A stretch of DNA of 64,000 nt from Thermodesulfobacteriota bacterium (GTDB lineage: Bacteria > Desulfobacterota_D > UBA1144 > Nemesobacterales > UBA2774): NCBI GenBank assembly GCA_965216785.1, contig OZ244197.1, positions 2,508,349 to 2,572,348 of the forward strand. The letters run 5' to 3'. The notes under the pieces were generated by a model. The model made no database searches. It was not told the origin of the DNA and saw only the letters and a list, made by a program, of their open reading frames with translations. This document shows, piece by piece, positions 7,301-50,940 of the stretch (within the stretch, counting starts at the first letter, position 1; every line of letters begins with the position of its first letter). The translations under genes were made by a program, and so were the position numbers.

Positions 7301-7453
7301 GGGGACAGAGGCGATCCTTCGACGAGCTCAGGATGAGCGGGATGAAATGACGAAATAGGGACGGACCGGAGGGCGAAGCCCGATCGGGGGGAGTAAAATT
7401 AAGAACGGGGACAGAGGCGAGTGCTTCACAGCGATGCCAGGGAGGCTAAAATT
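7301..7453 (+). repeat. Modular GGACAGAGGC repeat array, locus 1 (three units)
   Basis: 7303-7416 matches the reverse complement of 15029-15141 with 3 differences; units begin GGGAC(A/G)GA and end (T/G)AAAT. Confidence 0.85.
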
Positions 7454-7936
7454 AATAAGCCGCGGAAAAAGCAAGACAAGGATGAGGTGCGTAAAAGGGT
7501 CGAGAACGGGCTTAAGAGTAAAGACGTCATCCAGCTCATTTTAGCGCTCGAAGGGGTTAAGATCGACTACGACCACCTGTACTACTACGAGCATACGGGC
7601 CTAGTCGTGCCGTCCCTGAGGAAAGCGCAGGGCAGAGGATACCCAAAACTTTACTCCACAGAAGACTTTATCATACTACGCTGGCTCGTCTCGCTTCAAA
7701 AGAGCGGCGTACCTGTAAGCAGGTTCAGAAGCATACTCGGGTATTTGAAAAAGAAGATGCCCGAAGTGCTGAAGAAACCTCACAATTGGACGCTCGTAAC
7801 AGACGGCAAGTCTGTTCAGTTCAAAGATAACCAGTCGTCACGCAAAGTGGAGGTCATCGAGGACACGGGGCAGTACCTCTTTGCTTTGGACGAAGTAACT
7901 AATGAGACCCGCAAGACACCCAAGAAACGCGGTTAA
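7421..7936 (+). CDS. MerR-like HTH transcriptional regulator
   Basis: YYYEHTGLVVPS...GRGYPKLYSTEDFIILRWLVSLQKSGVPV fits the MerR HTH pattern; the ORF start lies inside the repeat, so the true start is probably downstream. Confidence 0.7.
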   Translation: MLHSDAREAKINKPRKKQDKDEVRKRVENGLKSKDVIQLILALEGVKIDYDHLYYYEHTGLVVPSLRKAQGRGYPKLYSTEDFIILRWLVSLQKSGVPVSRFRSILGYLKKKMPEVLKKPHNWTLVTDGKSVQFKDNQSSRKVEVIEDTGQYLFALDEVTNETRKTPKKRG

Positions 7937-7941
7937 TAAAA

Positions 7942-9186
7942 CTACATAGACTTATTCCCCTCAGCCACAATATCGGGAATGGATGTGAAGGATATCCTCA
8001 TCGGGGCAGATTCCGCAGCTCCGTGCATCGGGGCGTAATAGATGCTGTTCGTACCGTAGCGCTCATTGATGCTGTCAACGGCGATAGCGACTTTGTCCCG
8101 CTTGATCTCTCTTGAAAAGAGCGGGTAGGGGGTCCCCTCGGAGGGAGTGAGGTCATAGAGGGTCATCGATACGCTGAGCGGGGTAAGACCCCGGGGCCTT
8201 TCGGGCCAGACGGAGGAGAAAGCCTCCAGCATTGACTGCGTATCGTTTCTCTTTGTCATTTTTACGGTCTTTTTCCAGCGGAGATCACGGTCAAAGTATC
8301 TAACCTTAACGTCCATGCGGGAGGCGACGTACCCAAGCCTCCTCAGCCTGAACGCGGCCTTGTGTATGAGTCTTACGATCACGGCTCTGGTCTTTTCCTC
8401 TGTCCTCATCTCGGGCGGGAGCACGTGCGAGTGGCCCACGGTCTTTCTGGACGTTTCCGGCTCTGCCAGGTCCTCGCCCCTTATCATGTGCCACCAGCGC
8501 CTGCCTACGACGCTCTGCCATATGTAGGCGAAGTCTCGCTCGGAGAGCTTGAACATCTGCTCTATCGAATGTACGCCGTGCCTCTTTAGCCGGGCGCGCA
8601 TACCCTCACCTATGCCCGGGAGGTCTTGTAAATCAAGCTGATAGAGCTTTTCCGGTAGCTCGTTTTTTGTTATTACGGTAAGGCCGTCGGGCTTTTTCAT
8701 CTCGGCGGCTACTTTGGCCAAAAAGCGGTTGGTCGAGAGCCCGACAGAACAGCGGAGCGACTCGCCTGCTTTTTCGTTAATTGCCCTCTTTACGTCCTTT
8801 GCGAGCCGGAGCGCCTTCTCAAAACCCCTCTGGCTTCCCGTCAGCCTGCAGCACATCTCGTCAATCGACAGCACAGTGTCTACAGGGATAACAGAGTTTA
8901 CGGCCTCTATGATGCTGTGGTGATACTCTACGTAGCGTACGGGCCTTGCCTCGACGATGTTGATCGCGGGGCATAGCTCCTTTGCCAGGCCAACTTTGGT
9001 GCCTGTTTTCACACCGTAGCGCTTGGCCTCGTAGCTTGCAGCTATGCAGCAGGTGGTGTCAGCGTCCACGGGGACAACGGCTGTGGGCTTTCCCCGAAGC
9101 TCGGGGCGCATCTCTTGTTCTACAGAGGCGAAATACGCGTTCATGTCCAGAAACAGCCAGTCAAGAAACTGTTCGTTACGACCCAT
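7942..9186 (-). CDS. dinB: Y-family DNA polymerase (Pol IV/DinB-like)
   Basis: LFLDMNAYFASVEQ, AASYEAKRYGV, SIDE, SVGLSTNRFLAKVA; PLFS near the C-terminus resembles a clamp-binding motif. Confidence 0.88.
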   Translation of the reverse strand: MGRNEQFLDWLFLDMNAYFASVEQEMRPELRGKPTAVVPVDADTTCCIAASYEAKRYGVKTGTKVGLAKELCPAINIVEARPVRYVEYHHSIIEAVNSVIPVDTVLSIDEMCCRLTGSQRGFEKALRLAKDVKRAINEKAGESLRCSVGLSTNRFLAKVAAEMKKPDGLTVITKNELPEKLYQLDLQDLPGIGEGMRARLKRHGVHSIEQMFKLSERDFAYIWQSVVGRRWWHMIRGEDLAEPETSRKTVGHSHVLPPEMRTEEKTRAVIVRLIHKAAFRLRRLGYVASRMDVKVRYFDRDLRWKKTVKMTKRNDTQSMLEAFSSVWPERPRGLTPLSVSMTLYDLTPSEGTPYPLFSREIKRDKVAIAVDSINERYGTNSIYYAPMHGAAESAPMRISFTSIPDIVAEGNKSM

Positions 9187-9284
9187 ATTTTAGATGGTAA
9201 CACGGTTCGAAAAACCTGTCTGGGAGCTTTTTTCGTTTTTGGGAAATTGTAGGAATTAAGGGGGAGGGAGGTTTAAATGCTCTT

Positions 9285-10295
9285 TTATGTTTGGATACCC
9301 TTTTCAAAATTTGATCTTAAATTTTCCAACAATTCTTCCCAATCTATGCAGTAGTAATAATTACCCAAACTAGTCATACTGCTGAAATATTTATTTTTGT
9401 CTAAGGAATCCTTATCGTATCCAAGCCTAAACTTAAGAGAATTGAGAAAGCGCAAATCTAAGTATAATTCCGAGGCTTTATGAGTTTTTTCTTTAATGGC
9501 TAATTTTACTGTTGTGTCAATCTCTATAAGTTGAGCAAACGGAATACCAAAACTATTGAGAGAGATATGGTTCTTAGTATCAGATATGTGAGTTAATGAA
9601 TCCTCATAATATGCGTTACTACCCTGGGTGAATATTGCATAAATATCTAATCCAAGTATCTCGTTATAGACTTTCCTAACATCTTTGACAATATCCAGAA
9701 TATATTCAGGATTATAAGTGTAAGAAACATTGCTTTCGAAGTGACCCACAGTCCAGTTGCTTTTTAGAATCACATTATCCGCAAATGATATAAAAGACAC
9801 ATCAGAATATTTTGCAGCAAGTTTATCAATCGCATCACGTAGATTGATCAGCTTTTCATAATTCAGAAGGCCATTCTTTAATGCATTTTTTACTCCGATC
9901 GCATCGATCCAACAAAATACTGAATATTGCCTCAAATGTAGATGTTCGTACCATGAAGATTTAACAAAAATATGTGGTCTTTCACCATATATTGGACAAC
10001 TCACACATGTGACAAATTGGTCCCTAGGTAGATCAATGGTGACTTCGTGGAAGGTGTACAATACATCTGGAAACCAAGATAGTTCTATTGAGTTCTCATT
10101 GATTCGTCGAGCTACAATATCACTTATAGGGTCTACGGAGACATATTCACGAGTAGAAAAACTATTAAGCATTGCATTCTCATAATCCTGCATCAAACTC
10201 TCATCCATCATATAGGATTCTTCGTTTTTAGGTACTTGGTCGAATTCATGAACTACAAAACTCTCATGCTCAAACATTTGTATAACACTCCACAA
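9285..10295 (-). CDS. Hypothetical protein with a C-terminal class III nucleotidyl-cyclase-like domain (AT-rich)
   Basis: Motif series FCWIDAIGVK / SFADNVIL / AIFTQG / FGIPFAQLIEID / LYLD; likely ATG start at 10277. Confidence 0.55.
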   Translation of the reverse strand: MWSVIQMFEHESFVVHEFDQVPKNEESYMMDESLMQDYENAMLNSFSTREYVSVDPISDIVARRINENSIELSWFPDVLYTFHEVTIDLPRDQFVTCVSCPIYGERPHIFVKSSWYEHLHLRQYSVFCWIDAIGVKNALKNGLLNYEKLINLRDAIDKLAAKYSDVSFISFADNVILKSNWTVGHFESNVSYTYNPEYILDIVKDVRKVYNEILGLDIYAIFTQGSNAYYEDSLTHISDTKNHISLNSFGIPFAQLIEIDTTVKLAIKEKTHKASELYLDLRFLNSLKFRLGYDKDSLDKNKYFSSMTSLGNYYYCIDWEELLENLRSNFEKGIQT

Positions 10296-10302
10296 GAGTA
10301 GT

Positions 10303-11307
10303 TTATGTTTCTAATTGTAAATCATCTGGACTTAGTGCTTCAACTGCTGCAAATCCCTTGGTTTTCTTGAAATTCATATTATGAACAAAATTTTTCATAG
10401 AATCTGAAGGGTCAATCTCATCTAGATTTAATCTTTCTAATGTAGCTCTTGGAATAGCAACAGAGAGTATTGGTTGTTCTTCGATATGGCCTGTGCTTGA
10501 ATTTAATAGATTATCAATTGCAGTCACAACAACAGCATTTACAGGAAGCACAGAAAACAATTCATTCGCAACCCTCAGTACACAGCTACAAATATAATCT
10601 TGATACAGTTCATAATACTTTCCCATGGGCATTTTCTTGTAAGAAACTTTGCCACTTTTTAAAAGGCTTTTTGATTCGTCTGGAATTACATCTTCACCGT
10701 GAACATTGATTGAAGCTTCAATAATACGAGATTCCCCAATTTTAAAATCAAGACCTGAGCCTATTTCGACTATCTCTGAAAATGGGTTTAACTCTTCTAT
10801 GACTTCTAAATATGCATCAACTTCTTTATCAAATAACCTAAGTGCGAGGTTTTTACTATCTTCCCAGTCAGATTTAGCTTTATCGTATTCCTCTAATGCG
10901 AACTCGTACTCATCGTCATCTAAACTTCTGCTTTTTTCGATATCATTGTATAGATCATTCTTCTTTTTTTCTGTTCTCTTAAGCAATTTATCAAACATTC
11001 CGGGTTTATATGTTTCATGCAGGTTCTTCGCATTATCTTCGTTTTTTGAGTTCCGTACTGGTTCAGTAGGCGGCTTTGAATCTCTGATGTCAGCCCAATC
11101 AATCCTCTCTGAGTATTCTTTGTGAACCGATAACAATCTATCTATAAAATTTTCATATACTTCAACTTCATAAGCTGCTTGCTCCATTGCAGCCATTCGT
11201 TCTTCTTGCAACTGTTGTTTCTCAAGCGCTCGTTGTCTTCGTCGAGAGTCTCGCTCAGCAGCTTTAATACTCGAATTCACAGACCTTACAAAACCTTTCC
11301 AACCCAT
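10303..11307 (-). CDS. Hypothetical protein with an N-terminal coiled coil (AT-rich)
   Basis: Long ORF (track start 11367); ATG at 11307 preceded by AGGGGG SD; C-terminal YQDYICSCVLRVANELF...IDPSD...FKKTKGF. Confidence 0.75.
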   Translation of the reverse strand: MGWKGFVRSVNSSIKAAERDSRRRQRALEKQQLQEERMAAMEQAAYEVEVYENFIDRLLSVHKEYSERIDWADIRDSKPPTEPVRNSKNEDNAKNLHETYKPGMFDKLLKRTEKKKNDLYNDIEKSRSLDDDEYEFALEEYDKAKSDWEDSKNLALRLFDKEVDAYLEVIEELNPFSEIVEIGSGLDFKIGESRIIEASINVHGEDVIPDESKSLLKSGKVSYKKMPMGKYYELYQDYICSCVLRVANELFSVLPVNAVVVTAIDNLLNSSTGHIEEQPILSVAIPRATLERLNLDEIDPSDSMKNFVHNMNFKKTKGFAAVEALSPDDLQLET

Positions 11308-11444
11308 TTTAATACCCCCTTTGCAGATATATAAAACAAGAATTACATAATATTTGGGTGAATGCAAAAGTTAAGAAGATAATTGGCAGATTCTCACAAA
11401 CAATACCAAAATATAGGGTTGGTTCTTGCTTCGCTAACTATTTT

Positions 11445-11483
11445 CACCCCCATCCTAACCTTCCCCCGTCAAGGGGGAAGGAA
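11445..11483. repeat. REP-like palindrome CACCCCCATCCTAACCTTCCCCCGTCAAGGGGGAAGGAA
   Basis: 9-bp perfect stem CCTTCCCCC/GGGGGAAGG (11459-11467/11473-11481). Confidence 0.65.
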
Positions 11484-11500
11484 GTATAAGAGAAAGGATG

Positions 11501-11527
11501 AGATTCCGGCTCGTAGGCCGGAATGAC
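11501..11527. repeat. REP-like palindrome AGATTCCGGCTCGTAGGCCGGAATGAC
   Basis: 8-bp perfect stem ATTCCGGC/GCCGGAAT. Confidence 0.6.
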
Positions 11528-11551
11528 TAAATGCTGTGTTAGACTTTTTGT

Positions 11552-12820
11552 ATGGCCAGTCATAGCTTTGACTACCTAATAATAGGCGCCGGGATATTGG
11601 GCTCGGCGGTAGCGTACTCCCTTTCAAAAAGGCTGAATGAAAGGGGCAAGGGGGTCAGCATAGGAGTTTTGGACCCGGACCTCGAGGGAGAGCACTCTTC
11701 CACCCTTAAAAATGCGGGAGGAGTGAGGGCTACCTGGAGGAACCGTGCCAATATCTCCCTGTGTAAATTCTCTATAGAGTTCTATGAAACGATCGCAAGC
11801 GAGATACAGTTCAGAAAGCTCGGCTACTACTGGATGCACGGCGAGCGCTCCTGGGAAGAGGTAAATGAGAACTATCCGCTGTACAAGGAATACGGCTTGC
11901 CCACAGAGCTTCACCCGCCCGGGAAAATCCCGGAGCTAATGCCCTTTGTTGATAACTTAGAGGGGATCGCCGGGCTTTCGGTATCCAGAAGAGCAGGGCT
12001 CATAGACCATTATTCTCTAAGGCAGCTATACAGAAAAGGGGCGCGGGAAATGGGAGTTAGGTTTTTTGACCGCTACTACGTCGACTCTATGTCCCTTGAA
12101 GGATCCTGCGTTACGAAAGTCACCGCATTTGACCTTACAAGCAGAGGCCAGCAAGCCGGGGGGTTGCACGATGCCGTAAAAGAACTTCTCGTAACAGGAG
12201 ACGCGGGTGAGGGGGGAAGCATAGCCGAGTTTACATGCGGCACTCTCATAAACACCTCCGGCGCCTGGGCGCCCAGGATCTCCGCTCTTTATGGATTTAA
12301 CGACGAAGAGATAAAACCAAGGAGACGGCAAATGGTGGTAATGAAGAGCCAGGACGTCGATCTATCCTCTTATGGAATGGTAATAGACACATCGGATATA
12401 TATTTTCATAAAGAATCGGGGGACATTCTCGCCGGCTACTCCAACATGGACGAGCCCTACGGCTACAACTTTGAATTCAGCTTCGGCGGAACGGACGAGG
12501 AAAGCCAATTTGTAAAATACATCTGGGAGCCGCTATCTAAACGAATGAGCGGGTTCGAAAAGGTAAAGCTTGTAAGGGGATGGGCCGGGATTTACGCAGA
12601 GACGCCCGACCGCTCTGGGTATCTGGGAAAGGTGCCGGGCCTTGATAACGTGTATGAGTGCGCGGGTCATACCGGAAGGGGGCTTATGATCTCCTACGGC
12701 GCGGGGGAGGCGCTCACGGACCTCATTGTCGAGGGAGAGTTCCGAGAAGGGCTCGAGCATACGCATGATCTATCAAGGGAAAGACCCTCGGGCAAGCAGT
12801 ACGAAGGACTCCACTTATAG
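11552..12820 (+). CDS. FAD-dependent oxidoreductase (DAO/sarcosine oxidase beta-like)
   Basis: IIGAGILG dinucleotide-binding motif, STLKNAGGVR, INTSGAWA, ECAGHTGRGLM. Confidence 0.85.
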   Translation: MASHSFDYLIIGAGILGSAVAYSLSKRLNERGKGVSIGVLDPDLEGEHSSTLKNAGGVRATWRNRANISLCKFSIEFYETIASEIQFRKLGYYWMHGERSWEEVNENYPLYKEYGLPTELHPPGKIPELMPFVDNLEGIAGLSVSRRAGLIDHYSLRQLYRKGAREMGVRFFDRYYVDSMSLEGSCVTKVTAFDLTSRGQQAGGLHDAVKELLVTGDAGEGGSIAEFTCGTLINTSGAWAPRISALYGFNDEEIKPRRRQMVVMKSQDVDLSSYGMVIDTSDIYFHKESGDILAGYSNMDEPYGYNFEFSFGGTDEESQFVKYIWEPLSKRMSGFEKVKLVRGWAGIYAETPDRSGYLGKVPGLDNVYECAGHTGRGLMISYGAGEALTDLIVEGEFREGLEHTHDLSRERPSGKQYEGLHL

Positions 12821-12828
12821 CCGCGGCG

Positions 12829-13137
12829 CTACAGCTCGATCTGAATAGAGTCTCCGTCAATGACTACTTTATAACACCCAACGTTCTCTTCTGCCGGGGG
12901 CGTGAGTACTTCACCCGAGGTTATGTCAAACTTCGCCCCGTGCCAGGGGCAGGTGACAGTGTGTCCGTCAAGCTCGCCTTCACACAAGGGCCCGCCCACA
13001 TGAGTGCATTCGTTATCTATAGCGAAGAACTGTCCGCCCGAATTAAATAGGGCTATTTCCTTGCCGTCGACCTCGACAAGCTTCGCTTCACCATCTGTAA
13101 TTTCTCCAACTTTAGCTACCTCTACAGATTCAGCCAC
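12829..13137 (-). CDS. Rieske [2Fe-2S] ferredoxin
   Basis: CTHVGGPL and CPWHGAKFD Rieske boxes. Confidence 0.9.
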   Translation of the reverse strand: MAESVEVAKVGEITDGEAKLVEVDGKEIALFNSGGQFFAIDNECTHVGGPLCEGELDGHTVTCPWHGAKFDITSGEVLTPPAEENVGCYKVVIDGDSIQIEL

Positions 13138-13151
13138 TGGATTTCTCCCTA

Positions 13152-13478
13152 TTATTCGTCCATAAACTGTATTGCTTCCTCAAACTCCTCGGCCATCCCC
13201 GGGTGTCCGTGCCTATTGGCCGCTTCTATGCCTTTTACGTAGGCTTCCCTCGCCATCTCGGGCTGCCCTAGGTTCATGTGGCACTCGGCCAGTATCCTGT
13301 ACACAGCGCCCTCATCGTCTTTGATATTCAGGTACTCGTGTATAGCGGCCACAGCCTCTTCATACATCTCGGATTTGTAGTACTCGTTTGCGAGCCCGAA
13401 CCGCCCGAGCGGGTTTTGCGGGTCTCTTTCAATCATTGCTTTTAGCGCGTCTATTTTACTGCCGGTCAATTTTATCAC
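13152..13478 (-). CDS. Small TPR-repeat protein
   Basis: DPQNPLGRFGLANEY, YRILAECH...AREAYVKGI...GHPGMAEEF. Confidence 0.75.
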   Translation of the reverse strand: MIKLTGSKIDALKAMIERDPQNPLGRFGLANEYYKSEMYEEAVAAIHEYLNIKDDEGAVYRILAECHMNLGQPEMAREAYVKGIEAANRHGHPGMAEEFEEAIQFMDE

Positions 13479-13588
13479 CTGTTGTTTGTAGTTTGATAAA
13501 TATATTACACAGATTGTTCCCCTGAATAAAATCCTGCAATTGACTGTTTGACTTAATCCTGCATAATTGAGAGCTACTTAATCAGCTC

Positions 13589-14146
13589 ATGAACCACTCA
13601 ATAAGATATAAATTAATGGACTTCCTGTTCCAGGCAATTGCCGTTAGGCAGTACCTGATCTTCTCGGGCTGCTTCTTTGTTCTCACGGCTCTTGTAATGT
13701 TTATACTAAACGCTCAGATTATGCCCGCGGACTGCCCGGGAATGATATCACTTGAGCTAGCCTTCACAAAAGGAGCGCTGGGAGAGATTGTAAACGCGTG
13801 CGGCGCCGGCGGGGTGAGGGCGCACCAGGTAATGATTTGGGTCGATTATATATTCATTATCTCCTACGTCGGATTCCTCGGGAACCTGCTGGGCTCTTTA
13901 GTTAGGCACATCGAGTATGAAAAGGCGCTTCTGTACTTTTCCCTACCCATTTACGCTGGCGTGCTGGACGTCATAGAGAATACGCTTCTGCTGATCGAGC
14001 TTTCAGATACACAGAGCCTCAGCGGCATTCTGATATTTCTGGCTTCTATAGCCGCGCTGGTAAAATTCCTGCTTCTCATAGCGGCTATAGCTATCACGAT
14101 TTACTATCTGTTCGAGCTTATTACAAAGAGGGCGGATTCAAGCTAG
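13589..14146 (+). CDS. Hypothetical membrane protein (about four TM segments)
   Basis: Hydrophobic segments with ISLELAFT, DYIFIISY and AGVLDVIEN. Confidence 0.75.
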   Translation: MNHSIRYKLMDFLFQAIAVRQYLIFSGCFFVLTALVMFILNAQIMPADCPGMISLELAFTKGALGEIVNACGAGGVRAHQVMIWVDYIFIISYVGFLGNLLGSLVRHIEYEKALLYFSLPIYAGVLDVIENTLLLIELSDTQSLSGILIFLASIAALVKFLLLIAAIAITIYYLFELITKRADSS

Positions 14147-14967
14147 GCTATTCCGTTTCGCATTGAGAACTTCACAAGATCGACCAGGTTATGAATTTCG
14201 AGCTTTTTCATGATGTTGGCCCTGTGGGTCTCGACCGTCTTTACGCTTTAAGACAGCTCCTCGGCAATACCCGAATTACTCAAACCGCTCGTAATTAACA
14301 CGAGCAACCTCTGCTCCTTGGCGCTAAGCGTGTTGTACCGATCGTGCTCTTTATCAAAGTCTTTAATAATGGTATCCGGCGCCAGATACATCGGGCTTTC
14401 GTAAACAAAGTTGTTTTCCACCACTGTCGGGTGTGTTTTCATGATCGAAATTAGATCCTGGGAGCTTATTTTATTTACAGGATACTGGTTCATCATTATT
14501 AGAGATTTCTCCATACATAGCTTGTTTAAAAATGCTTTCTTCCAAAGCCTCTCTTTATTGCTCAGGAAATAAAATAAATAGCTGTACATCACAAGCACCC
14601 TCACTGGGCTCCGTCCCTTCTCTAGTACTTTATCAAGACTAATCCTGAGATTAGAGACAATAGTGCTCGCTCTTTTATTCTCTTTTACAGAGTTTTTGAT
14701 AATTATTTCTTCATAGGCCTTCGCACTCCCGTTTTCAGTACGTATTACACCGTTTCCTTCAAGCCTTGAGATAAGCTCTAGGGGCGCACGACGGTCGGAT
14801 ATAACAACACAAGTCAATTTACACTTGATAGAGTGTGCAAGAAACTTGGCGGCTATCTCGTAACACTCTGTATCGTTGTAATACAGATGACATAAGTGCT
14901 CATGTGCTTTAAGCGTGGGTAAGTACTGGAATATTGACTGTTGCATGTTTAATTTATTCCCAGGCAT
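14143..14967 (-). pseudogene. MEDS-like sensor plus LuxR HTH regulator interrupted by an in-frame TAA
   Basis: HEHLCHLYY MEDS-like start; LSAKEQRLLVLITSGLSNSGIAEELS, then TAA at 14248-14250, then in-frame SVKTVETHRANIMKKLEIHNLVDLVKFSMRNGIA-TAG ending at 14143. Confidence 0.75.
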
Positions 14968-15285
14968 CGCTCGTTCTAATTTTATTCCTGCTCTCGCTCA
15001 CACGCCTCGTTCACTCGCGGTCCCCAGTCTCTGTCCCCATTCTTAATTTTACTCCCCCGATCGGGCTTCGCCCTCCGGTCCGTCCCCATTTCGTCATTTC
15101 ATCCCGCTCATCCTGAGCTCGTCGAAGGATCGCCTCTGTCCATTTATTTTATCCTACGGGCATCGCTCCAAAGCGCTCGCCTCTGTCCATTTATTTTATT
15201 CCCGCCCCGGCATCGCTTGTTCTAATTTTATTCCAGCTCTCGCTCACACACTTCGTTCACTCGCAGCCCCCAGCCTCTGTCCCCA
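14950..15285 (-). repeat. Modular GGACAGAGGC repeat array, locus 2 (about seven units)
   Basis: Repeated CTCTGTCC on the + strand; internal near-duplicate segments 14950-15040 and about 15195-15285; begins right after the TAA at 15286-15288. Confidence 0.85.
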
Positions 15286-15830
15286 TTACATCTTATCAAT
15301 CGTATCTTTAATAATCAGAGCGGCGTTATGGATAGAGTCAATCCTTCGCAGCACCTCGGCATCGTCTCCGGGCGCCCCTTCCTCGAGGAATAATTCGGTA
15401 CTCCCGATAATTGCGGCAAGGGCATTTTCCGTCTCCTCAATCAGCTTCCTCTGAGTTCTGTGTTTATGGAGCGCAATCTCGATTGTCGTATAAAGATCCG
15501 TTTCTTGAAACGGTTTTAATATGTAACCGTAAGGATTTGTGGTCTTTGCCCTCTTAAGGGTCTTTTCATTCGAATAAGCCGTAAGGAATATGACGGGGAT
15601 GTTATAAAGCGCGCTCGTATAACCTTAGCAGCCTCGGTGCCGTCCATCTTACCCTCCAGCATAATGTCCATTAGAACAATTTCAGGCTCAGTGCGCTCCG
15701 AAAGCTCAATCGCCTCCTCAGCCGAGCGAGCGATACCCGTTACCGAATATCCAAGGTTTTGAAGTGTTTCCTCAATATCCTTTGCGACTATAATTTCGTC
15801 TTCCACTACAAGTACTTTGATCATTTTCAT
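15286..15830 (-). pseudogene. Response regulator (REC plus DHp-like tail) with a 2-nt frameshift near 15604-15606
   Basis: VLVVEDE...VLMDIMLEG...DG in one frame; NIPVIFLTAYSNEKTLKRAKTTNPYGYILKPF... continues in another frame from 15603 to the TAA at 15286. Confidence 0.8.
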
Positions 15831-43011: not shown

Positions 43012-43195
43012 CTTAAACCTCCGTACTTTGTAGTTTTTGTTCTGAGCCTATGTCACTGCTTAAAAACATTATAATAAAATAATTAGGAACTGCCTAGCAA
43101 GCAACTCTATTTATCATTGATATATAAACAAATATTTCTTGATTCGGAATACTTAGAGTTTGATAAAGAGGCTAAGAGTTTAAGAGCTCAAAGGT

Positions 43196-44269
43196 TTATT
43201 GACCCTTGGTTTTTATTATTGTTACGTGGCCCATTTTACGCCCGGCGCGGGCTTCTGATTTTCCGTAGAGATGTATACACGCGCCGTCTTTTCTATAGTA
43301 CTTCTTAATTTTCTCGACCTCTGATCCTATGAGGTTTATCATCACAGCGTCAGAGTGGCGCTCGGACGAGCCTACAGGGAGACCGCACACAGTGCGTACG
43401 TGCTGCCCGAACTGTGAGACGGCGCAGGCGTCTATGGTCAAGTGGCCCGAGTTATGGGTGCGGGGAGCAATCTCGTTTGCCAGAATGCGCCCGTCCTTTG
43501 TGACGAACATCTCTAGCGCAAGCACTCCTACAAGTCTCACTTTCCGAGCCAGCAGCAGCGCCTTGTCCCTGGCCTGCTTTGCCAAATCCTCGGGTATGCC
43601 CGCCGGCAAGGTACTTTGCGAGAGAATGTGATTTTTATGATCGTTCAACATAGGGCCGTAAATAGCTGTCTGCCGCTTTACATCCCTTGCAACGATGACT
43701 GATATCTCGCAGTCAAAATCAATGGGCTCTTCCGCTATAAGTTCATTTGAGCCGAGCTTCTTCCAGCTCTTTTTCGGTGAGTCCCCTGCCCTGTGAACAA
43801 GCTGCCCTTTGCCATCATAACCGAACCGGGTGGTTTTTAAAATAACATCACCGAGTCCCATATCACGGACCGCGGCACCTATATCTTCTGCTTTCCTTAC
43901 AGGCGCCCATCTCGCCGTGGGGATGCCTATATCGTTTAAAAACTGTTTCTCTTTAATCCTGTTCTGTGATATTTCAAGAAGTTTATCGTCGGGGTAGACT
44001 GGTTTAATATCTTGAATGTAGCGGACGGTTTCATACGGAATGTTCTCGAACTCGTAAGAGACCACATCCACGCTCTCGGCAAATGCCCTTAGTTTTCTTT
44101 TATTGTCGTAAGCTCCTACGAAAGTTCTGTCCGCTACCTGGCCCGCCGGGCTGTCTTGCTCAGGACAGTATATATGCACCTTGATACCGAGCTCTGCCGC
44201 CGCCAATGCGCTCATCCGCCCGAGCTGCCCTCCCCCTAATATCCCCAGCGTTTTAGTTTCGAAACTCAT
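43196..44269 (-). CDS. purK: N5-CAIR synthetase
   Basis: [44 protein letters not shown]. Confidence 0.95.
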
Positions 44270-44796
44270 GACTTCTTTTTGCGTGGGGTAGCCGGGGATT
44301 TTTTATTAGGCCTGATCTTAATACTCGCTGTTTGCTTTTTACGGAATGCCTCAAGCTTCTCGGCCACTTTATTGTCCTCTGTCGACAGGATAGACGCCGC
44401 CAGGAGGGCCGCGTTCTTAGCCCCCGCTGTGCCTATGGCGAGCGTGCCTACGGGTATGCCACCCGGCATCTGCACGATGGAAAGGAGACTGTCTAGCCCC
44501 TTTAATGTTCTGCTCTCGACCGGAACTCCAAGTACAGGGAGAGTAGTCATGCTGGCCGCCATTCCGGGAAGATGGGCGGCTCCCCCTGCGCCCGCGATGA
44601 TAACTTTTAGACCGCGCTCCCGAGCTGTCTTGGCATATTCGTACAAGCGGTCTGGAGTACGGTGGGCCGAGACTATTTTAGTCTCATATGGTATTTTCAG
44701 CCCGTCGAGCGATTCCGCCGCGTGCTTCATAGTTTCCCAGTCGGACTGAGAGCCCATAATGATCCCTATTAGTGGCCTGCGTTTTGAAATGGTCAT
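44266..44796 (-). CDS. purE: N5-CAIR mutase
   Basis: [39 protein letters not shown]. Confidence 0.96.
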
Positions 44797-44970
44797 ATCC
44801 GTGCGCTCAGATGTGAAAAATAAAAAAGATGTTACGGAAAATAACTCAAAAAGTCAAAAGGGCCAAAATTAGAATAACCCGGCGCTCTACCATGCAACGG
44901 GCACACTCAAATATTAATATGACAATCAATTCACTTGATGATGACAGGCCGATAGTCTATCTTAAGGATT

Positions 44971-45900
44971 ATGCTAAGAACCAAGCATAAAGATAATATC
45001 TACTTCATAACCCAGCCTGATCATGCGGCGGTGTCCGGGTATTTCGCTGCGCACTGGGGAAACGACGAGTTCACGCGTCCCGGGTATTACGCTCCCAGCA
45101 AAGACCCTGAGCAACTCCGTGCTGAAACTGTACTGGGCATTGCCGAGCACGATAACGGCTGGTGGGAATGGGAAGCGACTCTCGGAGAGGATGCAGAGGA
45201 CGGCCTGCCCAAGGGCCTTACAACGGTACTCAAGAACCAGGAAGAAGGGATGAACAGATGGAGGCTCGGGATACCGAGGCTGAGTGAGAAACATCCCTAC
45301 GCTAGCCTCCTTATCAGCTACCACGCCTATTGGCTCTACGCTCACTCAAGTAGAGCCGAGACGAACGAAGCGTTCATTCACCCCCTGTTCTGGAAAGGCA
45401 CAGACCTCTATGCTGAGGACTCAAAACCCGGATTAGAAGGAGAGGCCCTTGAGAACGCGCTTAAATTTGTAGAGGAAGTAAGAGGCTTACAAGAAAGTCT
45501 GAAATCACAGATAAATGCGAACGAAAATAAAAACGACTGGCTGAGCGACGGCAACTTACTGCCGCACGCAAGACTGATACAACTGCTGGACGGGCTTTCG
45601 CTCTCAATATGCTCGAACCTCATCCCGGCCAGTGATGGAGAATCAAAGGGCCTTGGGCAGGACGAATTTAACCTACTGAACGTGCCGAGGAAGAGCTGGG
45701 ACGACCGTGTGGCAATGAAAGTATATCCCAAGGGAGAGAGGAATATCGGGCTTGACCCCTACCCCTTCGATTTAGACCCTCTCAGAGTAAGCGTTCCTAC
45801 CAGGATTGTAGAAGGCCCGGCAGATAAACCCTTGTGCCTCTACCCCTTCTGGCATTCCATACCCCTGCAGCTGATCGAGTATGAATTCAGCTCTGGTTGA
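44971..45900 (+). CDS. DUF3891-family protein
   Basis: ITQPDHAAVSG, AEHDNGW, LLISYH, LDGLSL. Confidence 0.75.
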   Translation: MLRTKHKDNIYFITQPDHAAVSGYFAAHWGNDEFTRPGYYAPSKDPEQLRAETVLGIAEHDNGWWEWEATLGEDAEDGLPKGLTTVLKNQEEGMNRWRLGIPRLSEKHPYASLLISYHAYWLYAHSSRAETNEAFIHPLFWKGTDLYAEDSKPGLEGEALENALKFVEEVRGLQESLKSQINANENKNDWLSDGNLLPHARLIQLLDGLSLSICSNLIPASDGESKGLGQDEFNLLNVPRKSWDDRVAMKVYPKGERNIGLDPYPFDLDPLRVSVPTRIVEGPADKPLCLYPFWHSIPLQLIEYEFSSG

Positions 45901-46017
45901 CGCATTTCTTCTACATAAGCTAAAGCGTAAAATTAAGTAACCCCCTTGAACAAGTCGGGATAAGTTATTATATTTACTCTAATTTACTTTTAATATTTCT
46001 TGGTCGAGGAAAGATCT

Positions 46018-46380
46018 ATGCCGATATACGAATATGAGTGTAAAAACTGCGGAATCCAATTAGAAGAGCTTCAGAGCTTCAGCGACCCGCCCCTTAAAAA
46101 GTGCCCTAACTGTAAAAAGAATAAGCTTGAAAAGATGATATCGCTATCATCGTTTAAACTAGAAGGCACCGGCTGGTACGCCACTGATTATGTGAAAAAA
46201 CCGGGCATTCCGCCTCAAGCAGCCGACCAGAAAAACCCTGCCGTTTCTGACGGCGACGGAAAAGCGGACGGCGCAGCTAAAACAGTTGCAGAATCGGGCA
46301 GCCCTTCGAGTCCGAGCGAGACATTTAAGTCGATAGAAAAAGAGACCAAGAAAGCGAAGTCCAAAGCCAAATCGGCTTAA
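46018..46380 (+). CDS. FmdB-family zinc-ribbon protein
   Basis: MPIYEYECKNCG...CPNC...FKLEGTGWYATDY. Confidence 0.85.
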   Translation: MPIYEYECKNCGIQLEELQSFSDPPLKKCPNCKKNKLEKMISLSSFKLEGTGWYATDYVKKPGIPPQAADQKNPAVSDGDGKADGAAKTVAESGSPSSPSETFKSIEKETKKAKSKAKSA

Positions 46381-46499
46381 AGTTTTAGTCACCCTCCCCT
46401 ACCGAAAGAAAGTTTTCTCTTTGATACTGTAAAAGATTATTGTACTTACCCCCATGTATTGAGACTTCCATAATTTTAGGTTTATAATAGATACCCATT

Positions 46500-47291
46500 A
46501 TGGATATGGGAATAAAAGACAAAGTTGCCATAGTAGCCGCATCGAGCAAAGGCCTGGGTAAGGCTGTAGCTATGGGGCTTGCACACGAGGGCGTGAAAGT
46601 GACAATCTGCGCCCGTGGTGAAGATGAGCTTAAAAAGACTGCCAGTGAGATCGAATCCGAGACCGGAGCTCAAGTGCTGGCTGTACCATGCGATGTTTCC
46701 AAATCAGAGGAAATAGAAAACGTAGTCGCAGAGACAGTTAATAAATTTGGGACTGTTGACATAATGGTGAATAACGCGGGAGGCCCTCCTGTAGGGTTGT
46801 TCGAGGAGTTTTCCCTCGATGATTGGCACAAGGCAGTCGAGCTTAACCTCTTTAGCACCATCACATTCTCTAAGCTAGTCATCCCTTATATGAAAAAGAG
46901 CAACTGGGGCAGGATTATTAATATGACCTCCTACACCGTAAAGGAGCCTGTGGACGGTCTTATACTGTCAAACACAGTAAGAGCTGGAATAACAGGACTC
47001 ACCAAGACATTATCTAACGAGCTTGGGCCTCATAACATTCTTGTGAATAACGTAAGCCCGGGAAGGATCCATACGGACAGAATCACACAGCTTGCCCAGG
47101 AGAGAGCTAAACGAAGCGGAGCAAGCTTTGAAGAGGCGCTTAAGAGCATGGACGACGGTATACCGCTTGGAAGAGTCGGGCAGCCCCGCGAGTTCGCAAA
47201 CCTGGTAGTTTTTCTTGCCTCAGAGCGCGCGAGCTACATTACAGGCGATACGATACTAATCGACGGCGGACTAAGTAAAGGAATCATGTAG
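46500..47291 (+). CDS. SDR-family oxidoreductase
   Basis: AASSKGLG, VNNAGGPP, SNTVRAG, PGRIHTDR. Confidence 0.9.
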   Translation: MDMGIKDKVAIVAASSKGLGKAVAMGLAHEGVKVTICARGEDELKKTASEIESETGAQVLAVPCDVSKSEEIENVVAETVNKFGTVDIMVNNAGGPPVGLFEEFSLDDWHKAVELNLFSTITFSKLVIPYMKKSNWGRIINMTSYTVKEPVDGLILSNTVRAGITGLTKTLSNELGPHNILVNNVSPGRIHTDRITQLAQERAKRSGASFEEALKSMDDGIPLGRVGQPREFANLVVFLASERASYITGDTILIDGGLSKGIM

Positions 47292-47298
47292 CCAGGGA

Positions 47299-47799
47299 AT
47301 GAAACTCTACCCTCCACAAAAAAACATGTCTGTACTCTATCTGGCTTTGGCATGTCTTCTTTATTATTTCATCGCAACAGGGTTGCTGTCATCCAATACA
47401 TATATATACAATACGGAATATACATAGTATGTAGAGTTATATAAAGATGGCCGCTCTATAATGCATGTTATAGATACATCCTCTGTAAAGGATATATTCG
47501 ATAGATATAATATTGAAATAAAGAACGGCGACAAAATTATTATAGACGAAGACGGCAGCATTAAAACCGGGAGGATAAGCGGCGTCAAAAGCTTATCTCT
47601 AGGTGTCCCAATCGGGATTAACTCCGCCCCGGCTAAGGACCTTACTGCTCTTCCCGGAATCGGGAGCAAAACAGCAGAGCGCATTATCACCTACAGGGAA
47701 AACTCAGGGGGCTTTAAAAGCCTTGAAGAGATAGATAACGTTGTGGGAATCGGCGAAAAAACTCTGGAGTCTCTAAAGGGCAAGATAAGCCTTGACTAG
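47299..47799 (+). pseudogene. comEA: ComEA-like HhH DNA-binding protein with an in-frame TAG after the membrane anchor
   Basis: ATG at 47299, hydrophobic VLYLALACLLYYFIATGLL, TAG at 47425-47427, then in-frame INSAPAKDLTALPGIGSKTAERII...VVGIGEK. Confidence 0.7.
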
Positions 47800-50513
47800 C
47801 GTCTCAGCAGAAAATCTATTTCGGTCTCTGTTTCGTTCTTCGGAAGACCGTAATCACTCGGCACATATCCGGGGTCCGTGCCAAACTCCCCGCTGTCAAT
47901 CATCACTCTGTCTCTTAAGGAATCCAGCACGTTTTCCCTAAGCGAATCGATGCTGTAGGGCACATTTCCGTATGGAGTACTTACGGTTTTTATGCGCGAA
48001 GGCTTTTTGAATTTGCCCCCGGGGTATTTCTCTAAAGCCTCCTCCATAAAGTCTATCCATATCGGGAGCGCGGCCCTCGAGCCCGCTTCCTTTTTACCGA
48101 TTGGTTTATGGTCGTCACGCCCTACCCAAACCGCTGTTGTGATACGAGGGCTGAACCCCACAAACCACGCGTCCGTGTATTCGTTCGTAGTCCCCGTCTT
48201 TCCGCCCAATGGGGCCTTTGAAGTGAGCCTTGCGGCCCTTCTGCCCGTGCCTTCTTTAATTACAGCTTGAAGTAGATCTGACATTATGTACGCGGTCTCG
48301 GGGCTTAGAGTCTGTTTTTCTTCCCCGCCCGACAAGAAGTCCACTGAGCCAGAGCGGACCAGCTCGAGAAACTCAGCTGGGTTAAAAAACTTATATTCAC
48401 TTGAGTCCGAGGCAAAACCTTCTGAATCCGAAAGCTCATTTTCCTCTAAAAATTCTGAATCAAACTTAGCCTGATCGGGGTCCCTGCCCTTCTTCTTCGC
48501 GAGCGCTCTGATTATATTTAGTCTTTTGGCCTCGCGGTCCGCCTTTAAAGATTCTTCTTTGGATACAAACTGCCCGCCCGTGTTATCCTCGACAATTCTC
48601 CCGTTACGGTCATATATCCTGAGGATGAATACCGGCTCTACAAGCTTCCCTTCGTTCGCAAACACGTTATATGCCTTAACCATTTCCATCACTTTTACGT
48701 CGGCGCCGCCGAGCGCAAGTGAGGGATAGGGGTTGAACTTGGTCTCAAAACCGAAGTTCTTCGCATAGCTAACCACATACTTGGGATCAATATCGAGCAT
48801 CAGCCTGATGGTCGCGAGGTTTCTGGACTTGGCAAGAGCCGTTCTTAAAACTATTGCACCCAGGTAGTTACCGTCGTAGTTCTGCGGCGCCCAGTCCTTG
48901 ATGACTATAGGCATATCATACAGAACAGATGTCTCGGTGTAGCCTTTGTCAATAGCCGCAGAGTAAACAATCGGTTTAAACGCCGAGCCCGGCTGCCTTA
49001 CAGCCTGCACTGTCCTATTAAATTGTGAGGACCTGTAATCAAACCCTCCGACAAGCGCTCTAATATTGCCGCCAGTGTCCATAGCGACCAGAGCGGCTTG
49101 TGTCTCAGGGGCATAATTTAATACGTACTCATATTCTCCGCCTGAGGATTCCATCGCTTTAATTTTTATGACATCGCCTTTTTTAAGGTTTTTAGTTACG
49201 AGGCTTAATCCTCTGTAGCCGTCTGCAGGCACGTACTTTTCTGTGTAAGGAGAGCTTAGTCCGGGAACCGGCTTACCGAGCTTGGGGCTTACGGCATAGC
49301 GAAGCTCCCCCTTTATATCTCCAATCGCAATCTCTGCCGTATAGAGAACCGCTGCTTCATCTTGAGATTTATCGTCTTTTATTTCAGATTGCTCGTTTTT
49401 TGTTATTGAGGTCACTACAGCTTTGTACTCATCACCCGCTTTAATATCCACTATGTTCTGGGCGCTTAAGTATTTTTTAACCTGGGTGTCGTTTGAAAGG
49501 TTTTTGACCACGACTCTGCGGCCTCGTCTCGACTCTAAGTCCACTAGCCCTCTCTTAACAGCCCACTGCGCTTCAAGGTTCAGGTCTACGTCAAGAGTAG
49601 TAAATACGGTGTAACCCCCGTTTATGAATTCCTCTGTGCCGACAGTGTTTTCAAGATAGCGTCTTACGTGCTCCACAAAATAAGGAGCGAGCTTGGAGTT
49701 CACTCTCAAGCGGGGCTTAATGTCTATTTCAAAACTCTCAGCCTCAACTCTTTCGTCCTCTGTAATAAACCCTCCCTCCATCATTCTCCTGAGAACCGTT
49801 TTTTGCCTCTCAAGCGCGCGCTCAGGGTGGTTACGAGGTGAATAGTACTCGGGTTTTTGCGGCAGTCCGGCAAGCAGCGCGGCCTCCGCAAGATTTATAT
49901 CCTTGGCCGATTTACCGAAATAATTTTGGCTTGCAACCTCAATCCCATGCGCTCCGTCAGCCAGATAAATGTGATTTAGATATAGAAATAGAATCTCTTC
50001 CTTTGAAAGGTTATTCTCGATCCTGTGGGCAAGTATCGCCTCTTTTATCTTTCTTGTAAGAGTGCGCTCGGGGGTCAGGATAATATTCTTGATCACCTGC
50101 TGGGTTATCGTGCTTGCGCCTCTTACCCAATCGCCCTCCTGAATGTTCTCAAACATAGCGGCGATAATACTCTTTACGTCGACCCCTTCGTGCTCGAAAA
50201 AGCGGCGGTCCTCAACAGCGATAAAAGCATTTCTCACATGAGTGGGGATATTTTCATACCGAATGATTTTCCTTCTTTCTGCGGCGAATTCTCCAATTAA
50301 TGTCCCGTCCGCTGAGTACACTTCGCTCTTTAGCCGGGGCTTATAACCTGTCACGACAGTGAAATCGGGCAGGTCGCGAGTATAGTACTTATATCCCGCG
50401 TACAGGGCCAGAATCCCAGCTACCAGGAGTATAAAAAAAGCGGCGATAAAGAACATTAACGCCTTGCTTTTTCTGGGTTTTGATTTAAATTTTACTTTCT
50501 TTTTCTTAGCCAT
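47796..50513 (-). CDS. mrcA: Penicillin-binding protein 1A (class A PBP)
   Basis: AVEDRRFFEHEGVD, GASTITQQ, RKIKE; transpeptidase RQPGSAFKP, SRN, GKTGT; likely ATG at 50513 (track start 50567). Confidence 0.92.
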   Translation of the reverse strand: MAKKKKVKFKSKPRKSKALMFFIAAFFILLVAGILALYAGYKYYTRDLPDFTVVTGYKPRLKSEVYSADGTLIGEFAAERRKIIRYENIPTHVRNAFIAVEDRRFFEHEGVDVKSIIAAMFENIQEGDWVRGASTITQQVIKNIILTPERTLTRKIKEAILAHRIENNLSKEEILFLYLNHIYLADGAHGIEVASQNYFGKSAKDINLAEAALLAGLPQKPEYYSPRNHPERALERQKTVLRRMMEGGFITEDERVEAESFEIDIKPRLRVNSKLAPYFVEHVRRYLENTVGTEEFINGGYTVFTTLDVDLNLEAQWAVKRGLVDLESRRGRRVVVKNLSNDTQVKKYLSAQNIVDIKAGDEYKAVVTSITKNEQSEIKDDKSQDEAAVLYTAEIAIGDIKGELRYAVSPKLGKPVPGLSSPYTEKYVPADGYRGLSLVTKNLKKGDVIKIKAMESSGGEYEYVLNYAPETQAALVAMDTGGNIRALVGGFDYRSSQFNRTVQAVRQPGSAFKPIVYSAAIDKGYTETSVLYDMPIVIKDWAPQNYDGNYLGAIVLRTALAKSRNLATIRLMLDIDPKYVVSYAKNFGFETKFNPYPSLALGGADVKVMEMVKAYNVFANEGKLVEPVFILRIYDRNGRIVEDNTGGQFVSKEESLKADREAKRLNIIRALAKKKGRDPDQAKFDSEFLEENELSDSEGFASDSSEYKFFNPAEFLELVRSGSVDFLSGGEEKQTLSPETAYIMSDLLQAVIKEGTGRRAARLTSKAPLGGKTGTTNEYTDAWFVGFSPRITTAVWVGRDDHKPIGKKEAGSRAALPIWIDFMEEALEKYPGGKFKKPSRIKTVSTPYGNVPYSIDSLRENVLDSLRDRVMIDSGEFGTDPGYVPSDYGLPKNETETEIDFLLRR

Positions 50514-50625
50514 TAGATTCGACGCTGTCCGCTCAGAGGCAATTGAGTGGGAATGAAAATTAAACATAATTATACCTGAGATAAAGCGGTTTTATAAAGC
50601 TTTAAATTCGCCGGGTTTAAATTTC

Positions 50626-50835
50626 ATGGAACAGAAAAATACTGAAGAGGCACTTACGCTGGATACATATATTAAAGGCGTAAAAGACCAAGAGATAAAG
50701 GGCATACTGCTTAAGCTCAAGAACGAAATACGTAGAACGGACGCTGACAAGAACACAATTGAAGCAGTTATTGCCTCATTAAAAGATAAAAACATCACCA
50801 TAGCCGAGGAAGTGCTAAACTTAATCCAGGACTAA
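50626..50835 (+). CDS. Small hypothetical helical protein
   Basis: 69-aa ORF with amphipathic helical pattern, divergent from PBP1A. Confidence 0.55.
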   Translation: MEQKNTEEALTLDTYIKGVKDQEIKGILLKLKNEIRRTDADKNTIEAVIASLKDKNITIAEEVLNLIQD

Positions 50836-50940
50836 TGTGGACAGAGGCGAGCGTCTTTGCGCGATGCCGGGGATTAAAATTGGCTACAGAGGCTGGGGGC
50901 AGCGAGCGAACGTACTGCGTGAGCGAGAGCAGGATAAAAT
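50836..50940 (+). repeat. Modular GGACAGAGGC repeat array, locus 3 (two units)
   Basis: GGACAGAGGCGAGCG...GCGATGCC...TAAAAT and ACAGAGGCTGGGGGC.GCGAG.GAACG...GTGAGCGAGAGC.GGATAAAAT match modules in locus 2. Confidence 0.8.

Follow-up and report, generated by a model that had tools for sequence, protein, structure and literature searches.

What are the short, tandemly arranged sequences that occupy three intergenic regions in a 64-kb stretch of contig OZ244197.1 (GenBank assembly GCA_965216785.1), from a Thermodesulfobacteriota bacterium? A first-pass annotation of this stretch, hereafter the window, described them as arrays of units with constant ends and shuffled internal modules (A to D), likened them to a cassette array and suggested a non-autonomous mobile or RNA system. 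Following up on this description, we consider it probable that the arrays are copies of a lineage-specific family of interspersed mosaic repeats, small, non-autonomous and strand-asymmetric, which is found in a few Candidatus Dadabacteria and in which insertion was followed by shuffling. Their behaviour is that of selfish, non-autonomous DNA such as REP/BIME, BOX and MIRU repeats, and not that of a new RNA or cassette system.

Unit structure and distribution of the repeat family

Reading of the sequence confirmed the three arrays at 7299–7452 (+), 14952–15286 (−) and 50835–50940 (+). Profile hidden Markov models (HMMs), trained on units from relatives, recovered all of the constant-ended modules that had been described, and in the order described: A-B-C in array 1, D-C'-C-A-B-D-C' in array 2, where C' is a truncated C, and C-D in array 3. 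This amounts to exactly 12 units (two A, two B, three C, two C' and three D; Table 1), and no further unit was detected at E < 0.05 in the 64-kb window. All six exact occurrences of the head motif GGACAGAGGC in the window fall within an array; when one mismatch was allowed, we counted 13 matches where 3.4 ± 1.8 were expected, a number that was reached in 0 of 100 shuffles. The A-B block of array 1 (7303–7416) recurs in array 2 as its reverse complement (15029–15141), where one arm of 88 nt (99% identity) and another of 30 nt (97%) are out of register by a single-base indel. This bears out the inverted match with three differences that had been noticed at first pass.

The basic unit measures ∼45–60 nt and consists of (A/T)AT, the head GGGGACAGAGGC, a core, a G-run and the A/T-rich tail GGAATAAAAT, with YAGAA often coming next. 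Units of type B start with GGGGACGGACC and those of type D with TGGGGGCAGCGAG, both of which are degenerate forms of the common head. Furthermore, GYGCGAT is common to B and C, and one related locus (L046) carries a hybrid B/C unit with its joint at the shared GTGCGAT. What had been described as modules are subfamilies that diverged from a single type of unit, with degenerate copies of the same head in B and D, and the analogy with a cassette array is not supported.

To which organisms is the family confined? A search pattern for the C module (GGACAGAGGCGAGYG-N5-9-GCGATGCC), run on 185,579 GTDB species genomes, returned 47 loci, all of them in two metagenome-assembled genomes (MAGs) of Candidatus Dadabacteria, SZUA-126 and UBA2774, and many of them at contig ends. 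A core-independent pattern (head, 18–45 nt, tail) yielded 20 further metagenome loci, and the only match of the head...tail pattern in viral contigs was due to chance, in unrelated sequence. Across the window and 67 related loci (L001–L067), an array contains 1–8 units, with the four types combined in many different orders. Dadabacteria form a class within Thermodesulfobacteriota. The window shares 82–84% DNA identity with the syntenic contigs L046, L059 and L060 (∼82% protein identity for neighbouring genes) and therefore stems from another species of the same group. Pairwise identities between syntenic loci range from 81 to 90%, with 100% marking duplicates, which indicates at least five species-level populations. 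In Rfam 15, nothing in the whole window reached the gathering score and nothing in arrays 1 and 2 matched at E ≤ 1, and our literature search found no paper on repeats in Dadabacteria. This agrees with the earlier suggestion of an undescribed non-autonomous repeat family; the family is lineage-specific, previously undescribed and known from a small group of Candidatus Dadabacteria species.

On the unit strand, the arrays are 65–71% purine, and they fold slightly worse than shuffled sequence (z = +0.9 to +1.05). We found no inverted repeat of ≥8 nt in any of the three window arrays, and likewise no terminal inverted repeats or long palindromes; the head GGGGACAGAGGC and the tail GGAATAAAAT are mutually non-complementary. 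The lack of such repeats, together with the folding values, means that the arrays are neither REP-type palindromes nor inverted-repeat MITEs (miniature inverted-repeat transposable elements).

Every core contains one short hairpin. In B, it comprises eight pairs, none of which is broken in any of 19 copies (152/152 cells paired) and three of which show compensatory changes (CG/GC; CG/UA/GC; GC/AU). Its covariation of 0.425, compared with 0.132 after shuffling, was attained in 0 of 500 shuffles and dropped to ≤0.09 when the 3' partners were moved by 1–3 columns. A G-U pair is kept in 19/19 copies. The A stem has seven pairs, with its outer stem changed from C-G to U-A in the window copies, and some relatives add a co-varying inner hairpin (GCACAC/GTGTGC, GGACAC/GTGTCC or GTGCAC/GTGCAC). 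The D hairpin is weak, with one compensatory pair, and the C stem is uninformative on covariation, since it was fixed by the search pattern. In all four types, the unit strand folds better than its complement, as is also favoured by the composition of G-rich strands.

One rival reading is that the arrays are protein sponges or small RNAs (GGA decoys of the CsrA/RsmA type), or else CRISPR-like RNAs that are cut at the constant junction. In its favour, the A units of the window carry CAGGAUG in a possible GCUC-AGGAU-GAGC hairpin loop, and the tail-head junction is constant over ∼30 nt. We nevertheless regard this reading as extremely improbable. GGA counts match those expected from composition (9 versus 7.0 ± 2.0, 17 versus 15.8 ± 3.0 and 3 versus 4.2 ± 1.6), and CAGGATG changes to CAGGGTG in relatives in step with the stem, which argues for a stem and not for a conserved loop motif. 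Moreover, the would-be spacers recur, no cas-like gene or CsrA was seen in the window or in the sampled loci, and the Rfam search was negative. For a CsrA-type GGA sponge in particular, the unenriched GGA, the co-variation of CAGGATG with its stem partner and the lack of a CsrA homologue in the sample led us to reject the idea. For the processing of units from RNA, which the first pass had also considered, no positive evidence emerged, since the arrays fold no better than shuffles and GGA is not enriched.

Turnover at orthologous sites and probable landing sites

The picture of constant ends with reshuffled modules extended to other species, in which orthologous sites vary in presence, copy number and module order (ten comparisons tabulated in all). 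At position 13568, in the leader of the gene at 13589, the window is empty, whereas L059 and L060 (∼84% identity) carry ∼230 nt of C-C-C-B-C' directly after the same CATAATT. The junction upstream of ruvC is 1 nt long in L023 but 211 nt long, with an array, in L042, and upstream of ruvB a single unit in L023 compares with three in L042. In L030, B and C have been added after ..AATAAAATKAGRAAAT (..GAAAT), at a site that is unoccupied in L065. Composition differs as well: the small gene that is preceded by A-B-C in the window is preceded by D-C-D-B/C in L046. Finally, L046 has an array after ..GAAAAT where L059 is unoccupied, and the divergent dinB/DAO spacer, which is minimal in L059, accommodates two arrays in L046 and a 2.3-kb island with two open reading frames (ORFs) in the window. 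Related species have gained and lost arrays and have expanded and recomposed others, and the differences in copy number and order could serve as markers for this uncultured lineage, in the manner of variable-number tandem repeats (VNTRs).

The island itself (9238–11533; 2.3 kb) has a G+C content of ∼0.40 and two minus-strand ORFs (9285–10295 and 10303–11367) with no Pfam or PADLOC match. It is missing from the syntenic spacer of L059, L060 and L046 and was probably inserted.

How might the orders have been shuffled? Identical adjacent units occur in L008, L013, L018 and L042 and show local tandem duplication, and the near-identical, head-bounded A-B block in arrays 1 and 2, which stand 7.6 kb apart, points to ectopic conversion. 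Arrays, once in place, may have evolved through local tandem duplications and through ectopic exchange (recombination or gene conversion) with the shared heads as anchors, which would account for the shuffled orders, the hybrid units and the 97–99% identity of the A-B block. It is possible, if hardly favoured, that such host processes did all of the work, with spread and shuffling both due to slippage, unequal crossing-over, ectopic gene conversion and microhomology template switching at AAT/GGGG, and with no dedicated enzyme. The identical tandem neighbours, the head-bounded A-B block and the B/C hybrid of L046 are what one would expect in this case, as are the recurrence of the D-C' composite (seen in array 2 and conserved in relatives), the microhomology (AT, GGGG) seen at the junctions in folK and in L030/L065, and the fact that most copies are old and diverged. 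However, microhomology by itself hardly explains how units were seeded at so many unrelated loci, among them two coding genes and the loop of a different repeat, and head and tail are far better kept than a passive minisatellite would predict.

The two coding genes are folK (HPPK), which contains in-frame units between KLGR and WGPR(T/I)IDLD in three genomes, with inserts that differ in length and composition, and the gene of a zinc-ribbon/RDD-family membrane protein. All of these inserts read in one frame, GQRRASHSDAG, and the flanking protein continues in frame on both sides. In L002, the folK insert has GGGG and TAAAAT as its exact ends and lies at a native AGAT|GGGG. In L023 and L025, single units are nested in the loop of a GATGAGATTCCGG..CCGGAATGACA hairpin repeat.

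The sequence to the left of 42 array-initial heads has an A at −4 in 27 cases and a T at −3 in 33, and nothing is conserved further upstream. In pairs of occupied and unoccupied sites, both alleles have ..AAAT in their flank, from which we conclude that GGGG is probably the start of the element and that insertion takes place 3' of ..AAT. Five such comparisons revealed no consistent target duplication, only AT and GGGG microhomology at the junctions. We propose that new units would be inserted 3' of an A/T-rich ..AAT site, next to a G-run, without terminal inverted repeats or clear target duplication. The unit tail, ending in ..AAAAT, would recreate the target, and head-to-tail growth of mixed arrays would therefore be expected. 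Since TAA(T) stops, −10-like boxes and A/T-rich initiation regions would also offer ..AAT sites, arrays would come to lie right after stops and right before starts.

As this rule would lead one to expect, the head ATG overlaps the upstream stop in 7 of 33 arrays, where 0.47 would be expected (p = 6e-7), and RuvB stops at the same codon as in an ortholog without an array there. This TAATG overlap could also be read as translational coupling, given that insertion at start codons, together with a coupled ORF, has been described for MIRUs (PMC12548453). Each unit would then be a mini-ORF, from the head ATG to a stop in the tail TAA, that relays ribosomes from the upstream stop to the downstream start, and a head-C-tail unit can in fact read ATG GGG ACA ... 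GAA TAA, in 14 codons. Such a role is very improbable, given that the ATG is missing from about one third of internal heads (CAGGGG, TAGGGG or AGAGGA instead) and that three stop-abutting arrays are followed by a convergent gene, which leaves no partner for coupling. Furthermore, the same module occurs in different frames, with the head ATGGGGACAG in some copies and ATGGACAG in others, and variants in tail length often put the TAA out of frame. The frame shifts, the ATG-less heads and the displaced TAA led us to reject the idea that the mini-ORFs are coding.

The sequence TTGCAC-17-TAATGT, preceded by TG, is conserved between the window (7265–7296) and SZUA-126 (L046:38–68), just upstream of array 1 and of its counterpart. 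The arrays therefore begin approximately at the predicted transcription start of the small unknown gene that follows (7421/7482–7936).

Some other hairpin-forming sequences lie outside the family. The window has hairpin repeats of the form GTCATTGCGAGG..GCGGCAATCCCCA at 33778–33815 and 59087–59124, as well as GATGAGATTCCGG..CCGGAATGAC at 11497–11528 and a CCCC..GGGG hairpin at 11447–11485; in relatives, the corresponding repeats often adjoin arrays. Between array 3 and the cysK-like gene, positions 50941–50995 form a separate GC-rich stretch with hairpin potential (GTGCCGGGGC..., ...CGGCAC).

Table 1. Units of the three window arrays and other sites of the repeat family. Positions refer to the window unless a related locus is named.
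Feature	Position	Strand	HMM match	Description
Array 1, unit A	7299–7348	+	7303–7345	Head ATGGGGACAGAGGC (7299–7312); hairpin core AUCCU...AGGAU; tail GGGATGAAAT
Array 1, unit B	7357–7399	+	7358–7402	Degenerate head AGGGACGGACC; hairpin CCGG-A-GGGC-GAA-GCCC-GA-UCGG; tail GGGGGGAGTAAAAT
Array 1, unit C	7407–7452	+	7409–7452	Head GGGGACAGAGGC; core GAGTGCTTCACAGCGATGCC; tail AGGGAGGCTAAAAT
Array 2, first unit D	15225–15286	−	15225–15272	A of the head ATG (15286) is the last base of the TAA stop of the upstream gene (15288–15286)
Array 2, unit C'	15193–15218	−	15196–15217	3' half of C plus tail
Array 2, unit C	15146–15190	−	15147–15188	Head ATGGACAGAGGC, two G short of usual
Array 2, unit A	15096–15143	−	15099–15141	Near-identical to 7299–7348
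Array 2, unit B	15046–15089	−	15042–15088	Near-identical to 7357–7399
Array 2, second unit D	14979–15040	−	14979–15026	Head GGACAGAGAC
Array 2, terminal unit C'	14952–14972	−	14951–14971	Tail GGGAATAAAT; likely start codon of the MEDS-domain gene (14946–14944) 5 nt downstream
Array 3, unit C	50835–50880	+	50839–50879	A of the head ATG (50835) lies within the TAA stop (50833–50835) of a 69-aa ORF
Array 3, unit D	50881–50940	+	50894–50939	Degenerate head TGGCTACAGAGGC
Unoccupied site	13540–13588	+		Promoter-like TTGACT-16-CATAAT, 20-nt leader, ATG at 13589
folK with in-frame insertion	L002:1932–2597	+
folK with in-frame insertion	L001:3433–4044	−
folK with in-frame insertion	L051:857–1471	+
Zinc-ribbon/RDD-family membrane protein gene with in-frame insertion	L065:4156–5202	−		In linker

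Orientation, expression signals and candidate inserting activities

All three arrays had been reported to point the same way as the downstream gene. This is true inside the window, but the evidence is weak: array 1 lies between divergent genes and would face a downstream gene either way, so that its orientation is uninformative; array 2 is sense between co-directional genes; and array 3 is sense only if the 69-aa ORF upstream of it is real. As a strict general rule, the statement did not hold. Among non-duplicate loci, arrays between co-directional genes were sense in 15 cases and antisense in 6 (p = 0.078), and genic insertions were sense in 4/4, which corresponds to a moderate sense bias at most. 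The first pass had also set its reading apart from that of a catalogued family scattered genome-wide in random orientation and with a fixed order. The family is not catalogued and its order is polymorphic; its copies do occur genome-wide, yet with the moderate bias just described.

Purifying selection might be the cause of this bias. The sense RNA would be G-rich and C-poor, hence a poor Rho-loading site, with one stop-free frame and with a terminal AGGA plus A/T spacer as a potential ribosome-binding site, whereas the antisense RNA would be C-rich and Rho-prone. This explanation leans on the established biology of Rho and of translation.

Alternatively, the units might be selected as RNA modules of mRNAs, with spread being secondary. 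They would then act as intercistronic stabiliser or processing elements, in which a GC hairpin is followed by an A/U-rich, cleavage-prone linker, or as portable ribosome-binding sites or standby sites. The better folding of the sense strand in all four unit types, the G-U pair kept throughout B and the sense bias are compatible with such a role. The same is true for the position of arrays in leaders, just downstream of promoter-like sites, for the tail AGGAATAAAAT, which abuts start codons (for example at 14952–14946 of the window and in L041, L042 and L018), and for a leader that is occupied in two species despite different composition. We still consider this reading improbable. Composition alone explains the better folding of G-rich strands, whole arrays are unstructured, and six arrays between co-directional genes are antisense. 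In addition, housekeeping genes may have an array in one species and none at the orthologous site in another, where no other element compensates for it, and in-frame genic insertion and nesting in another repeat are typical of selfish DNA. Exaptation of units as mRNA stabilisers or processing elements is nonetheless conceivable.

At the DNA level, the C unit of array 1 reads, at 7425–7452, like a sigma-70 promoter (TTCACA-16-TAAAAT, 10/12 matches). TTCACA-16/18-TAAAAT is present in 17 of the 53 distinct C units of L001–L067 and in no A, B or D unit, a distribution that led us to reject the idea of a portable promoter as anything beyond a side effect. Outward promoters could arise from the sigma-70-like arrangement, though at most as a by-product. 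For a few genes, the tail AGGAATAAAAT is the only Shine–Dalgarno-like sequence. One of them is the MEDS-domain gene downstream of array 2, where the start codon of the longest ORF (ATG 14967, −) falls inside the last C' unit; its true start is more likely 14946, 5 nt after the tail GGGAATAAAT. The arrays can thus mislead start-codon choice, and they also create spurious ORFs (7328–7474 (−), 14934–15116 (+) and 50835–51023 (+)). Upstream of array 2, the response-regulator gene (15286–15830, −) has a frameshift near 15600, with the receiver N-terminus in one frame and ..YNIPVIFLTAYSNEKTLKRAK..IIKDTIDKM* in another, and is either a pseudogene or affected by a sequencing error. On the scale of whole assemblies, many contigs of SZUA-126 and UBA2774 are cut off within an array at their start or end, or have runs of N at such places (L003, L004, L007, L010, L012, L013, L016, L024 and others). 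The repeats, of which many copies sit at SZUA-126 contig ends, evidently fragment short-read MAG assemblies.

What could have inserted the units? The genes that flank the arrays in the window are ordinary (chromate transporter, small unknown protein, DinB-type polymerase, MEDS-domain protein, response regulator and histidine kinase, PBP1, CysK-like protein and FtsH). No candidate enzyme is among the window genes, as the first-pass annotation had supposed when it placed the enzyme outside the window, and PADLOC gave no match for the unknown window ORFs. All-against-all clustering of 348 ORFs near arrays revealed no recurrent neighbours but ABC transporters, epimerases and dehydrogenases. Searches with tblastn and phmmer gave a weak negative, with no Y1, RAYT or IS200 homologue in 0.48 Mb of sampled loci, which come from at least five genomes and cover a small part of each; the best E values were 0.14–0.17, and the best matches lay within an FAD-oxidoreductase gene.

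The inserting activity could be a single-strand enzyme of the HUH/Y1 type encoded elsewhere, or it could be microhomology-driven host repair. For the former, a dedicated RAYT- or IS200/IS605-like enzyme elsewhere in the genome would read the hairpin and head and insert units 3' of a short ..AAT. As the identity of the inserting agent, we rate this as possible but doubtful. IS200/IS605 elements insert 3' of a 4–5-nt target without duplicating it, and this reading would suit the asymmetric ends of the units without inverted repeats, the lack of a visible target duplication, the co-varying hairpin and the A/T-rich flank that ends in AT before the head. In addition, the head is conserved across subfamilies and species, and a tail that recreates the target would lead naturally to head-to-tail arrays. 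On the other hand, the search described above was negative, the GTAG/CGTC tag is not present, each unit has a single short hairpin, and the units are directly oriented, unlike the inverted pairs that are typical of RAYT-associated REPs.

A bolder version is that a strand-specific mechanism reads the head and hairpin and inserts exactly at ..AAT|GG, whether in stops, −10 boxes, start regions or earlier tails, which would make the unit a directional, non-palindromic and self-targeting mini-element. We think that this is unlikely. If true, the unit would be mobile and functionally MIRU-like, with an enzyme of its own and a host outside the Actinobacteria, and it would stack up in arrays between cistrons and slip in frame into genes.

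Several points weigh against our interpretation of the arrays as an inserted and later shuffled repeat family. No mobilising enzyme was found in the window or in the 0.48 Mb that we sampled, no multi-copy gene lies near the arrays, and we saw no clear target-site duplication. Most copies occur only once (the 61 C units comprise 53 distinct sequences), with no sign of a recent burst. The apparently unoccupied sites might be deletions and not the ancestral state, since they were compared without an outgroup. Head and tail are better conserved than the cores across subfamilies and species, which is equally compatible with a function at the RNA level or in protein binding. Our sample is also biased, as the loci were fetched with family-specific patterns, and gene calls in the related loci come from a crude ORF filter.

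As a directional, purine-rich and self-stacking repeat that is tolerated in frame in folK, the gene of a folate-biosynthesis enzyme, the family is a useful test case for the spread of non-palindromic mini-repeats and for the filtering of orientation by transcription and translation.

Comparison with known repeat families

The family resembles the REP/BIME elements of Enterobacteria, Pseudomonas and Stenotrophomonas, which are presumed to be non-autonomous (PMC3184786), in that short, G+C-rich stem-loop units are present in high copy number in intergenic, mostly transcribed DNA, form mosaics of a few types with short linkers and vary between relatives. It differs from them in having no 20–40-nt palindrome: the stems of the Dadabacteria units have ≤8 interrupted pairs, and the arrays fold no better than shuffles. 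Whereas the palindrome of REPs bears a conserved tetranucleotide, GTAG or CGTC, at one of its ends (PMC3733652), the conserved 5' sequence here is GGGGACAGAGGC, and GTAG/CGTC is conserved in no unit catalogue or alignment. Furthermore, all units are direct, and not alternating or in inverted pairs, the purine asymmetry between strands is strong, and no gene for RAYT, the Y1 HUH transposase that REPs often flank, was seen in the 0.48 Mb of sampled loci. MITEs differ in the terminal inverted repeats that the Dadabacteria units do not have.

BOX elements of Streptococcus, organised as boxA-boxB(n)-boxC, are likewise intergenic and transcribed and can create or extend ORFs (PMC3049150). Both families are modular composites with a variable number and permutation of internal modules, and further modules are known from the BOX elements of S. 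suis. However, the terminal modules of BOX are distinct, its ends are inverted repeats and its targets are duplicated, whereas in the Dadabacteria arrays each unit has the same head and tail, and there are no special terminal modules, no inverted ends and no sequence similarity to BOX.

MIRUs, which are mycobacterial repeats, share with the present family non-palindromic, direct tandem units (40–100 bp in MIRUs and 45–60 nt here) that lie between operon genes in variable copy number. In MIRUs, the ATG of the element overlaps a flanking stop or start codon (PMC12548453), comparable to the ATG/stop overlap of 7/33 arrays here. The Dadabacteria units differ in having no conserved reading frame or universal ATG, in their antisense copies and co-varying hairpins, and in an unrelated host lineage.

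Frame-preserving insertion into protein-coding genes, seen here for folK in three genomes and for the RDD-family gene, is also known from the RPEs of Rickettsia (PMC3184786). These are palindromic and 100–150 nt long, whereas the inserts described here consist of one to three non-palindromic units of 45–60 nt and most copies of the family are intergenic. Correia and Neisseria REP2 repeats can bring promoters or ribosome-binding sites with them (PMC3184786), as might the 17/53 C units and the tail AGGAATAAAAT; Correia elements are inverted-repeat MITEs with TA duplication, and the Dadabacteria signals, all of them predictions, occur in only part of one subfamily. In CRISPR arrays and integron-like cassette arrays, unique inserts are separated by a constant repeat or recombination site, and a cas or integrase gene is adjacent; here, the 'inserts' are four recurring hairpin types, the neighbouring genes have housekeeping or regulatory functions, and head and tail form no attC-like inverted ends.

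The more interesting question is that of the directional, self-stacking insertion mechanism. As for its classification, the family fully fits none of the definitions of REP, MITE, BOX and MIRU elements; it belongs among the small interspersed mosaic repeats and is ordinary in kind.

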